A program made the translations under genes and the position numbers. The notes below the pieces were generated by a model that saw only the letters and a program-made list of their open reading frames with translations, ran no database searches and had not been told where the DNA came from. Positions 31,312-33,692 of a stretch of DNA of 64,000 bases are shown one piece after another (the first letter of the stretch is position 1; the number at the start of each line of letters is the position of its first letter). Origin of the DNA: Escherichia coli (GTDB lineage: Bacteria; Pseudomonadota; Gammaproteobacteria; Enterobacterales; Enterobacteriaceae); the NCBI RefSeq assembly GCF_030013205.1, contig NZ_CP122649.1; one strand, written 5' to 3'.

Positions 31312-31593
31312 TCACTGCAAACGGGAGCAGGAATTCCGTTGCAGTTCTTCGGCCGCCTGCTGTTGCAGCACGACCATCACTCTGCTGAGCATTGTCAGCG
31401 CCTGGGAAGGGGAACCGCCAAACGTCAATTTGATTTCGTTGGTGGTGTGGTGCTGTTCCAGGTCGAGAATATTTACTTCCACGTCTGCGCCCTTCTCATC
31501 CTTAGCCGTACAATGAATGCTGACCCGGGTCACCGGGTCCTTAACTGTCTGCAATGGTTTCTTCGTGCTGATGTTGATTGCGGTATTCTTCAT
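31312..31593 (-). CDS. hypothetical protein (93 aa)
   Basis: ORF immediately downstream of the ParB-like gene. Confidence 0.5.
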   Translation of the reverse strand: MKNTAINISTKKPLQTVKDPVTRVSIHCTAKDEKGADVEVNILDLEQHHTTNEIKLTFGGSPSQALTMLSRVMVVLQQQAAEELQRNSCSRLQ

Positions 31594-31658
31594 TGCCCTG
31601 TTTCTCCTTGACCAGTGGTGGTAACCGACCCTACCGGGTGGCGGGGTCAGTCAGGAAA

Positions 31659-32864
31659 TCATGCCTGGCCCTTGTTCTGCTTTTCAGCATGTTTACGCAG
31701 GTACTGCGTCAGATCGCCGTGAGCTTCACAAATGGCATTCATCTCGTCATTGGTCAGCACCAGAGTGTAAGTATCGTCGCTGAGGTTCTTAGCGGCCCGT
31801 TGTTTAGCTTCTTCCGCAATACGCGAAAACAGCGGGATTGCCGTGTCCGCAATCGTCGTCACGGTCTTTTTGTTCAGTACGCTGGAGACCGACACAGCTT
31901 TAGGCTCTGGCGTTTTGACCGGGTCTTTCATCTGCGGTGCCGGGGTCCTTTCCGGGGTCGGCTCCGGGTTAGTGCCCGCACTCCCGTCCACCAGCTGCGG
32001 TGGGGTGGTCTCATCGTTAGTACCTTCGCCGGACGTTTGTTCAGTCACGGTGGTTTCCGGGGGGGTCGCATTTGCGTCCGGCACGATGGCTGCTTTCGGC
32101 TTCATCGCTGCATCAATGTTGCCAGCTTTGACGAATTTCAGGGTTTTGGCCGTCGCCTTACCATAAACATCAATGGCTTTGGTGATGTTGTTGACCGCTT
32201 CATCGCCGCTGTAAAGGTATTCATCCAGCGCGACATACATACTCACTTCACCCTTCACCAACATGGCCTGGAGGGCTTCAGGCAGATCCAGGACGCGAAC
32301 CATCTGACGCAGGTGCTGTTCGGTTTTACCGCGACGCTTCGCCAGTTCAGCGAACGTTTTGGGTTCTTCCGCGTCTTCAACCATCCGTTTGATGGAGAGC
32401 GCCTCAGCTACGACAGACAGAGCCAGATTTGAGTTACCGTCCAGCGTAAACTGCTCGGCACTGGCGCGGCTACCGCGAAACTCCTCGCATCGAATTAACG
32501 TGATCAATTCACGCCCTTCATCTGCCAGCTCGATGTTTGCCATCGCGACGGCACGGATACGGCATGCTCCCTGGCGCAGGACCGGACGGCCATTCAGAAT
32601 CTGTACGACAATAGCTTGTACGCTTAAAGGATCGATCTTGTAGGACTCTTTCAGGCTGTTCAGGTGGGCTACCACGTCAGGTAATGAGTAGTAACTCTCC
32701 CCAATGCCAGCAGTACGGGTGTTAAACCCCTCTTCCTCTTCGACCACTGCCGGGTTAATGACTAGACCATTGCTTTTGCGTGCGCCGTTACCGGTACGCT
32801 CCAGGTAGGTGCGCAGGCTGATATCGTTGTTAGCGGTTTTTACATCATTTTCGACAGTGGACAT
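31659..32864 (-). CDS. ParB/KorB-like DNA-binding protein
   Basis: ParB N-terminal-like block IVVQILNGRPVLRQGACRIRAVAMA, HTH-like TFAELAKRRGKTEQHLRQMVRVLDLP, Pro/Thr/Glu-rich linker; no ParA gene nearby. Confidence 0.65.
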   Translation of the reverse strand: MSTVENDVKTANNDISLRTYLERTGNGARKSNGLVINPAVVEEEEGFNTRTAGIGESYYSLPDVVAHLNSLKESYKIDPLSVQAIVVQILNGRPVLRQGACRIRAVAMANIELADEGRELITLIRCEEFRGSRASAEQFTLDGNSNLALSVVAEALSIKRMVEDAEEPKTFAELAKRRGKTEQHLRQMVRVLDLPEALQAMLVKGEVSMYVALDEYLYSGDEAVNNITKAIDVYGKATAKTLKFVKAGNIDAAMKPKAAIVPDANATPPETTVTEQTSGEGTNDETTPPQLVDGSAGTNPEPTPERTPAPQMKDPVKTPEPKAVSVSSVLNKKTVTTIADTAIPLFSRIAEEAKQRAAKNLSDDTYTLVLTNDEMNAICEAHGDLTQYLRKHAEKQNKGQA

Positions 32865-32958
32865 GGTGCCTTCCTTTTAGTTTTCGTTTAGGGTGTTTGT
32901 TCGCTACAAAACAACAATACCAGGTTCGATTCATTTCCTAATAACCTGAGGCGAAAAA

Positions 32959-32969
32959 AAAGTAACTTT
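32959..32969. promoter_or_regulatory. AAAGTWACTTT palindrome site
   Basis: Exact match about 95 bp upstream of the ParB-like gene. Confidence 0.65.
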
Positions 32970-33076
32970 TTTTCCGGGGGTTATAGTACGCGATCCGTCC
33001 GTTTTAAATTCTCGCTAAGGAGGGCAAATTTCACTTTAGTGTGAAAAGCGGGTACATAAAGCAGGAATATGTCGAA

Positions 33077-33087
33077 AAAGTTACTTT
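33077..33087. promoter_or_regulatory. AAAGTWACTTT palindrome site
   Basis: Exact match, second site upstream of the ParB-like gene, followed by CCCGGTTGCC. Confidence 0.65.
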
Positions 33088-33692
33088 CCCGGTTGCCTGA
33101 AAAAATGCCGTTGCAGCAAACACAAGGTGTGAACACCCCCCCGCCCCGGCGGCTCCGGGCAAAGGAGTATCCGATGAAGCTTTCCCGGCAGACCACAAAT
33201 GATACGGCTGTAATCGAAGGCACCCGCAGATTACCGACCATATCGCCTCCCAGCGAGCCACCGAAGCCAAAAAAGACGGCATGAATTTTAATGCAGGCGT
33301 TGAGCTTGCATCTAAAAGGAACTGTGCAACGAGGACAAACATTACCATGATTGAACACCGCACAGAGATGCGCCAAACGGCCATTAAATCGCTTCAGGAA
33401 GCCGAAGAAGCATTGACGGCACTGGCTATGTCCTATGAGCTACAGCCCGATGATAAGGCCAGTTCGTGTCATCCACGGACCGGTACTCTCTCCACGGCCA
33501 GCCAGGTACGGAAATTGCGCCGTGTCGTCGAAAAGCAGAAAACTTGAAATTCGACAAGGCGGCGGGTAGCTATTTCCTGCATGTACAAACTAACAAGGGT
33601 TTAGCCGACGATAGAAAGGAAAAAAGGGTTTCCCCGACCGGAGAAACCCTTTTCTAAAGGTGCCATTAGCTTGCTGGCCCACATTCTGAAAT

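Follow-up and report, generated by a model that had tools for sequence, protein, structure and literature searches.

An orphan ParB/KorB-like protein of an IncHI1 plasmid and a plasmid-wide palindrome set suggestive of a global control network

The 64,000-nucleotide stretch of Escherichia coli contig NZ_CP122649.1 analyzed here (hereafter, the window) is, judged by its sequence, part of an IncHI1 resistance plasmid, and it carries a gene for a 401-amino-acid (aa) protein annotated only as a DNA-binding protein. Profile searches and a structure model place this protein in the ParB-CTPase fold family (CTP, cytidine triphosphate) as an orphan member, i.e., a stand-alone ParB/KorB-type DNA-binding protein. 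A palindrome that occurs twice in front of its gene recurs across the plasmid backbone, and this set of sites suggests an undescribed plasmid-wide control network. We lean, without strong confidence, towards the 401-aa protein being a KorB-like, autoregulated global regulator or clamp at these palindromes. The first-pass annotation had argued for a regulator rather than a partition protein, and we infer that this is the best-supported reading of the evidence below.

The gene and its domains lie as follows, in window coordinates.

31659..32864, minus strand: open reading frame (ORF) of the 401-aa ParB/KorB-like protein, WP_000108723, annotated 'DNA-binding protein' only
32430..32816, minus strand: ParB/Srx-type N-terminal domain, residues ~17-145 (AlphaFold2 (AF2) model with a predicted local distance difference test score (pLDDT) of ~90, Foldseek, profile alignment, invariant columns)
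32550..32570, minus strand: Box II P-motif GACRIRA, residues 99-105 (orthologue alignment, profile alignment, comparison with KorB)
32103..32429, minus strand: central ParB-type helix-turn-helix (HTH) DNA-binding domain, residues ~146-254 (PF17762, PDB ParB domains, AF2 model)
31881..32102, minus strand: disordered linker rich in Pro, Thr, Glu and Ala, residues ~255-328 (pLDDT, composition, orthologue variation)
31662..31880, minus strand: conserved two-helix C-terminal domain, residues ~329-401 (conservation and a low-confidence model)

The features that the first-pass annotation had read from this gene, namely the 401-aa ORF, the GACRIRA motif, the HTH segment and the Pro/Thr/Glu-rich linker, were all recovered by ORF check, Pfam, alignment, composition and pLDDT; from its N-terminus, the protein has the ParB-type N-terminal domain followed by the HTH, then ~75 aa of disordered linker and, last, a C-terminal domain of two helices. 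Its ParB/KorB-like assignment also held up in the two approaches it had proposed, profile search and structure prediction, both of which gave ParB-fold matches. Residues 17-250 of the AF2 model reach a pLDDT of ~90, and Foldseek with this model returned ParB-CTP, KorB, KorB-KorA, Noc and Spo0J structures that match over both the N-terminal domain and the HTH (probability 1.0, E 1e-7); PHROG 1033 'ParB-like partition protein' spans residues 19-270 (E 8e-18), and a profile built from 48 family members matched solved PDB chains of ParB, Noc and Spo0J (E ~1e-14). Searched alone, the 401-aa protein matched only HTH_ParB in Pfam (PF17762, residues 149-209, E 3e-5), ParB DNA-binding domains in the PDB (E 3e-4) and, below the cut-off, NCBIfam parB_part; the Pfam ParB N-terminal model PF02195 gave no match, and it took the family profile, PHROG and the structure model to recognise the N-terminal domain. 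PF17762 is matched by 34 of the 48 family members, while the Pfam KorB domain PF08535 has no match in the 401-aa protein and is matched by one of 48 remote relatives at E <= 0.001; the resemblance to the KorB structure is confined to the fold. The HTH helices comprise residues 171-178 and 182-193, with TEQHLRQMVRV as recognition helix, whose pattern S/T-x-x-H-phi-R is retained in all orthologues. The linker (residues ~250-330) is enriched in Pro (14), Thr (11), Ala and Glu, has a pLDDT of <50 over residues 255-328, and differs in length and sequence among orthologues. It leads to a conserved block, SSVLNKKTVTTIADTAIP...DTYTLVLTNDEM, with helices at 332-356 and 372-397 that are modelled with a pLDDT of 56-68 only, and this block is a putative dimerisation domain.

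The arginine motif had been called diverged at first pass; GACRIRA is real, yet it is only one residue from GARRYR, the corresponding motif of KorB. In the profile alignment, the family's 'RdGhCRlRA' stands against the 'GERRxRA' of solved ParBs, with G99 and R102 aligned to the Gly and the second Arg of GERR (GxxR is kept), A100 at the Glu position and C101 replacing the first Arg of GERRxR. G99, R102, N48 and R50 are invariant among the 48 family members, and L96, R97, Q98, G99, C101, R102 and R104 among 16 orthologues, down to 45% identity. A Box I-like GFNTR, which holds the invariant N48 and R50, is placed where ParB has NPxQPR (HMMER alignments to solved ParBs begin after this segment), and the remnant of Box III is DGNSN in the 401-aa protein, against (S/G)N family-wide: its Asn (N144) remains, its Glu does not. 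KorB also has Ala at the Glu position of its P-motif and still hydrolyses CTP, and its R117 is required for CTP binding (PMC11790492), as is R80 of B. subtilis ParB, as cited in PMC13370423. KorB R117 and N146 correspond in our alignment to R102 and N144, and going by these residues nucleotide binding by the 401-aa protein is plausible. Box III is frequently divergent in orphan ParBs, and nucleotide specificity and hydrolysis are not predictable from sequence (PMC12704722). If functional, a GACRIR motif with no Box III Glu would extend the set of ParB-fold switches by a natural P-motif variant.

Evidence for a partition partner was sought around the gene and on the related plasmid R27, the sequence of which was assembled from four segments. 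The annotation shows no ParA-type gene anywhere in the 64-kb window or at the orthologous loci L007, L008, L011 and L012, and a regular-expression search of the 401-aa protein found no ParA-binding peptide (L/F/I)G(K/R)G(L/F/I), including LG(R/K)GL (definition from PMC12704722). R27 has a canonical pair made of ParA R0020 and the SopB/P1-type ParB R0019 (parA and parB in PMC7366339), the latter with a GSRRR motif, and ParM is also present. Adjoining parA are 19 direct repeats (R27 25652-27775, period ~52-54 bp, core CGATTAAGGGGG), a probable centromere of the canonical pair. R0019 and the 401-aa protein share the ParB/Srx N-terminal fold and the HTH; R0019 differs by its adjacent parA, its GSRRR motif and the 19-repeat array. 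The orphan status claimed at first pass is consistent with all of this. A cognate ParA with a classical parS elsewhere on the plasmid had been named as a finding that would count against the first-pass reading; the R27 ParA does not represent such a case, because it has its own ParB and its own repeat array. Furthermore, the sites considered next are not clustered beside the operon of the 401-aa protein, as those of a centromere would be.

Two copies of a palindrome whose consensus reaches 15 bp (GAAAAGTWACTTTTC) bracket a putative promoter upstream of the gene (palindromes are given without strand throughout).

32957..32971: proximal palindrome, core AAAGTAACTTT at 32959-32969, core start 95 bp upstream of the ATG at 32864
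33075..33089: distal palindrome, core AAAGTTACTTT at 33077-33087, core start 213 bp upstream of the ATG
32980..33008, minus strand: putative sigma-70 promoter read by eye, with -35 TTTAAA at 33003-33008, a 17-nt spacer and -10 TATAAC at 32980-32985

The cores AAAGTAACTTT and AAAGTTACTTT are reverse complements of each other, and the block between the two sites, which we read as the promoter, is conserved between IncHI1 and IncHI2. The proximal palindrome is a probable autoregulatory operator: it lies directly downstream of the putative -10 and so right behind the presumed transcription start, and the 401-aa gene would thereby repress itself. Across six lineages, including that of the window, a site lies ~100-120 bp upstream of the orthologue's ATG, the other five being IncHI2, a Klebsiella IncHI1B/FIB plasmid (38% identity), Yersinia and L012 (~45%), and L021 (~30%), where the upstream copy is degenerate with one mismatch. 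A second site is usual at 200-300 bp upstream, its distal partner being seen in IncHI2, Yersinia and L012, and the Klebsiella IncHI1B/FIB plasmid has five sites in the 600 bp upstream of the orthologue. The recognition-helix pattern kept in the orthologues fits such an unchanging site.

The palindromes that had been reported upstream of the gene are real, but they are not peculiar to its promoter, as they extend over the whole plasmid. AAAGTWACTTT has 19 exact copies in the window against 0.03 expected, and none of 100 shuffles equalled this count. On R27, AAAGTNACTTT has 46 copies (0.44 expected) and is by far the most enriched palindrome and the sole one with strong enrichment, AAAAGTNACTTTT has 26 copies (0.04 expected), and one-mismatch variants of the 11-mer number only 25. 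The sites are spread evenly over R27 at ~1 per 4 kb, except that none falls in the accessory DNA of Tn10 and tcu, which account for two of the three largest inter-site gaps. They favor intergenic DNA (23/46 sites, with 20.6% of R27 being intergenic; p = 9e-6), where they lie in front of the trhR-side and mobI/traH operons that flank oriT, of htdT, of the pilin operon and of the RepHI1B gene; one further site is directly downstream of the other RepB-family gene. Seven window sites fall where IncHI1 and IncHI2 can be aligned (73% identity, flanks 56-72%); all ten specified bases are kept at each of the seven, four of which are within coding sequences, and we estimate the probability of such conservation by chance at ~0.73^70, or roughly 3e-10. 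We rejected the idea that the palindrome forms a hairpin or terminator, judging a 5-6-bp A/T-rich stem closed by a 1-nt loop to be unstable. The GTNAC core of the palindrome resembles a MaeIII-type site; a restriction-modification target was likewise rejected, since conservation spans 15 bp and the site is enriched, not avoided. The remaining copies in the window are the following.

3671..3681: convergent gene ends, Y-family polymerase and DsbA
6125..6135: copy with central C, 3' end of a coding sequence
7928..7938: copy with central C, within a HAD-domain gene
8206..8216: convergent ends of the HAD gene and trhG, paired with the copy at 8288
8288..8298: convergent gene ends, 82 bp from the 8206 copy
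13825..13835: 5' end of trhH, kept in IncHI2
16463..16473: within an oriT-adjacent gene (probably trhR), IncHI2 differing at the central base only
16903..16913: oriT region, ~80 bp in front of the trhR-side operon, kept in IncHI2
17388..17398: ~193 bp upstream of mobI/traH in the oriT region
22124..22134: within the coupling-protein gene traG/traD, kept in IncHI2
23854..23864: 3' end of traG/traD, ~61 bp before the next gene, kept in IncHI2
28543..28553: intergenic, ~168 bp upstream of a 104-aa gene
39603..39613: intergenic, ~206 bp upstream of a small gene
45841..45851: intergenic, ~53 bp upstream of a small gene
47118..47128: within a PAPS-reductase-family gene
51006..51016: intergenic, ~304 bp upstream of a 110-aa gene
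53940..53950: intergenic, ~138 bp upstream of a 258-aa gene
61087..61097: intergenic, between an Ig-like gene and a small gene
62425..62435: intergenic, ~615 bp upstream of the RepB-family (RepHI1B) gene

Mechanistically, a dimer of the 401-aa protein would recognise the 15-bp palindrome, and the two copies bracketing its own promoter would let the gene repress itself. The protein would also load at the backbone sites, i.e., at promoters of transfer, replication and other operons and at the conserved intragenic positions, possibly as a nucleotide-gated sliding clamp by analogy with KorB, and such a clamp would coordinate, and most likely repress, plasmid gene expression. By this analogy the protein would work most like KorB, although it is not a KorB family member by sequence. 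KorB, which acts in the IncP-1 plasmid RK2 as a global repressor and ParB-CTPase clamp (PMC11790492), has its domains arranged as they are here, with a linker of 53 aa, and it shares the Ala at the P-motif Glu position, the CTP-binding Arg and the Box III Asn. Its OB site is, like the 13/15-bp site here, an odd-length palindrome present in many copies at and far from promoters, its own operon included. RK2, at ~60 kb, has 12 such sites compared with ~46 here, which is a similar density. Unlike KorB, the 401-aa protein lacks PF08535, an adjacent ParA (IncC for KorB) and a ParA-binding peptide; it has Cys for the first P-motif Arg, has lost the Box III Glu, would use a different operator sequence and has a second paralog on the plasmid, and no counterpart of KorB's KorA/TrbA partner was identified for it. 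On this reading the 401-aa protein would join the plasmid ParB-fold regulators with dispersed palindromic sites; it stands out by the Cys of its P-motif, by the loss of the Glu from Box III, by conserved intragenic sites and by the paralog.

Expression of the gene could be followed through R27, in which the 401-aa gene is probably R0104 and the 93-aa gene after it probably R0105 (ORFs counted from flmA, R0101, and backwards from the peptidase, R0116). At 25 and 37 C alike, expression of the probable R0104 is high (2196 and 2155 units), and it is up 2.6-fold in an htdA mutant, while the expression of the probable R0105 is ~ten times below that of R0104 (all in the supplement of PMC7366339). These data indicate activity of the 401-aa gene in vegetative donor cultures, and simple co-expression with the 93-aa gene does not account for them. 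The 93-aa gene lies as follows.

31312..31593, minus strand: ORF of the 93-aa gene, WP_000798703, 'hypothetical protein', 65 bp downstream of the 401-aa ORF

The 93-aa protein had been put forward as a possible partner, and the comparison of lineages does not support this. It has no Pfam, NCBIfam or PHROG family match, and its gene adjoins the ParB-like gene only in IncHI1 and IncHI2 (61% identical in the latter); in L012 a 30%-identical homologue is two genes off the orthologue, and the surroundings of the orthologue in the Klebsiella and Yersinia loci yielded none. Lacking both a family match and conserved adjacency, it was rejected as an obligatory partner.

Several observations weigh against a KorB-like regulator. 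Half of the sites are intragenic or at convergent gene ends, which is atypical for simple operators, and no candidate for a KorA- or TrbA-like co-repressor was found. A consensus promoter scan reported none at 32980..33008, where the promoter was read by eye. Because the Box III Glu is gone and Cys stands at the first Arg of Box II, nucleotide binding or hydrolysis, as far as sequence can indicate, may be altered or lost. Neither a comparable dispersed palindrome nor AAAGTNACTTT occurs at L017-L019, where remote family members reside on other elements; these loci serve as negative controls, but they leave the dispersed-site trait unestablished for the family as a whole. Finally, a second ParB-like protein of 385 aa (R27 45191-46348, motif VRQGHCRLKA, adjoining dam and a DUF4942 gene) is found in every examined plasmid lineage with the motif, and L013 and L014 have a site 43 or 119 bp upstream of its gene.

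The last of these points leads to the explanation that survives best beside the preferred one, namely that the palindrome belongs to the 385-aa paralog or to an unrelated plasmid or host factor, with the 401-aa gene being regulated and its product having other targets, e.g., the recipient chromosome. We consider this unlikely, though it deserves to be taken seriously. The paralog co-occurs with the motif and has an upstream site in two lineages, which makes it a rival binder of the palindrome. There is also precedent in the ParB-like HerB/YfjB of plasmid F, which has the host chromosome as its target but no clear binding motif there (PMC13370423), and the 401-aa gene sits with DUF905 and hok in a one-directional, leading-region-like block of small genes. 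On the other hand, the recognition helix of the paralog varies across lineages while the motif is unchanged, no site lies within 360 bp upstream of the paralog in R27, and all six lineages show a site near -100 of the 401-type gene, which is also highly expressed in vegetative donor cultures and not just after transfer. The variable helix and the missing R27 site favor the 401-aa protein as binder, without amounting to proof. IncHI1 and IncHI2 records have three matching places each, of which the 385-aa paralog is one, and the plasmids H55 and H57, which still carry the motif but not the 401-aa gene, are recent IncHI1/IncHI2 derivatives and so do not discriminate between the paralogs. HerB and BisD of ICEclc (PMC12409273) are, like the 401-aa protein, ParB-like proteins of conjugative elements with no ParA partner, and both are transcription regulators. 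HerB is larger (~650 aa), with a D4 dimerisation module and canonical Boxes II and III, and BisD activates transfer-competence genes together with BisC; compared with both, the locus of the 401-aa protein has a sharply defined plasmid-borne motif, and the protein has a different C-terminus.

A protein that loads at the palindromes and spreads could instead act as VirB does, relieving or reshaping the silencing of the AT-rich IncHI backbone by H-NS and Hha, and would then be an activator or anti-silencer; we regard this as rather improbable. For VirB, anti-silencing by a CTP-dependent, ParB-like protein has been described (PMC10770331); homologues of H-NS and Hha are encoded on IncHI plasmids, and R27 transfer is under H-NS and temperature control (PMC7366339). 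Sites 50-460 bp upstream of many operons, together with the intragenic ones, suit spreading better than simple occlusion. However, the proximal site at the gene's own promoter, just past the putative -10, is in a typical repressor position, the P-motif is nearest to that of KorB, and the expression of the probable R0104 is constant with temperature. VirB of the Shigella plasmid pINV (PMC10770331) is likewise an orphan plasmid ParB-like protein with no ParA, with specific sites on an AT-rich, H-NS-silenced plasmid, but it is an activator that counteracts H-NS and a relative of P1-type ParB, and no specific sequence similarity to VirB was found here.

A more speculative and doubtful view is that the plasmid marks its own backbone. 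Here, the ~46 strictly conserved palindromes, some of them within essential transfer genes, would load a Glu-less, possibly non-hydrolysing or non-CTP ParB-type clamp that coats the 180-kb plasmid or partitions it into domains and sets the readout of H-NS/Hha silencing and of temperature-dependent transfer, with the paralog as partner or antagonist. If true, this would amount to a chromatin-like layer of two ParBs and not to a simple repressor.

We find it very unlikely that the 401-aa protein is a third segregation or organisation factor, with the palindromes serving as parS-like loading sites through which the 180-kb plasmid is condensed or positioned, perhaps together with ParA R0020 or a host factor. 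The ParB fold, the dispersed palindromes and the conserved intragenic sites would suit such a role, and chromosomal ParB and Noc use multiple dispersed sites. It is disfavored by the missing LG(R/K)GL peptide and adjacent parA, by the R27 ParA having its own ParB and adjacent 19-repeat array, by ParM as a second system, and by sites that are evenly spread and not in centromere-like clusters. Noc, which is among the best fold matches and whose model is weakly matched by remote family members, also combines a ParB fold with many dispersed palindromic sites, but it is chromosomal, controls division and has an N-terminal membrane-targeting helix, and the 401-aa protein has neither such a helix nor such a context. 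An enzyme of the ParB/Srx superfamily, either an Osa-like nuclease/ATPase or sulfiredoxin-like through Cys101 and in either case with unrelated palindromes, is the least credible proposal, since the invariance of Cys101 in the P-motif and the weak similarity of the N-terminal domain to sulfiredoxin (Foldseek E 0.06) are outweighed by a complete ParB HTH, linker and C-terminal domain with DNA-clamp ParBs as best matches, and by Cys101 aligning with ParB R79 and not, when the Srx motif GCHR is laid against it, with the catalytic Srx Cys one position earlier.

Returning to the KorB-like regulator, its interest lies in the plasmids that encode it. IncHI1 and IncHI2 plasmids are carriers of multidrug resistance in Enterobacterales, S. 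Typhi among them, and the control of IncHI transfer has been described through H-NS/Hha, HtdA and TrhR/TrhY (PMC7366339). If true, a KorB-type protein with ~46 conserved sites would be a missing global layer of control, some of its sites lying at the operons on either side of oriT, in front of the pilin gene and close to replication genes. A literature search, which did not cover the original R27 sequence paper, returned no description of the motif or of an IncHI ParB-like regulator.

The family of the 401-aa protein is broader than these plasmids. Close homologues form 31 clusters, and those with a source name are all from Enterobacterales; an exhaustive profile search added 453 more distant relatives with the consensus motif RDGHCRxRA. 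The remote relatives at L017-L019 (RDGHCR motif) lie within small-gene arrays on mobile elements, next to anti-restriction, KfrA, integrase and ubiquitin-like system genes and with no adjacent parA.

A few local arrangements of the palindrome and of other repeats were also observed. The pair at 8206-8298, at the 3' ends of the HAD-domain gene and trhG, is not in a promoter position. Five palindrome copies lie within 1.3 kb directly downstream of repA on the Klebsiella IncHI1B/FIB plasmid (L008 1152-2408), a locus that also has four copies of CCCCGCATGCGGGG, and a Photorhabdus contig (L020 16458-16950) has three copies of TCAGCNGCTGA within 500 bp, near the contig end. The next most enriched palindrome is TACCNGGTA, with 7/8 window copies clustered round the RepHI1B gene (62712-63974) and the same cluster in R27 at 53968-55297; these are probably iterons of the RepHI1B replicon, and given this clustering TACCNGGTA was set aside as a second dispersed site.

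Over 2.2 kb, the locus of the 401-aa gene shows 100% identity with IncHI1 plasmids, among them pHCM1 of S. Typhi CT18, and it has matches in 274 PLSDB plasmids. The plasmids matched in this analysis stem from clinical and livestock isolates, and blaSHV-12 is present on one of them. The oriT/mobI-relaxase-coupling protein cluster is ~15 kb away from the gene, which is housed in a ~25-kb block (27622-53224) transcribed nearly entirely from one strand and broken by IS1 and corA. This block contains small hypothetical genes, DUF905, hok, DUF957, DUF3085, HNH, PAPS-reductase-family and RelE/ParE genes; no ssb, psiB or ardA is annotated in it, and it looks like a leading-region or establishment block. 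Its Hok-family toxin gene (flmA-type; 33720-33878, minus strand) is accompanied by a strong terminator-like hairpin at 33620-33655, by which the promoter region of the ParB-like gene would be insulated from hok transcription.

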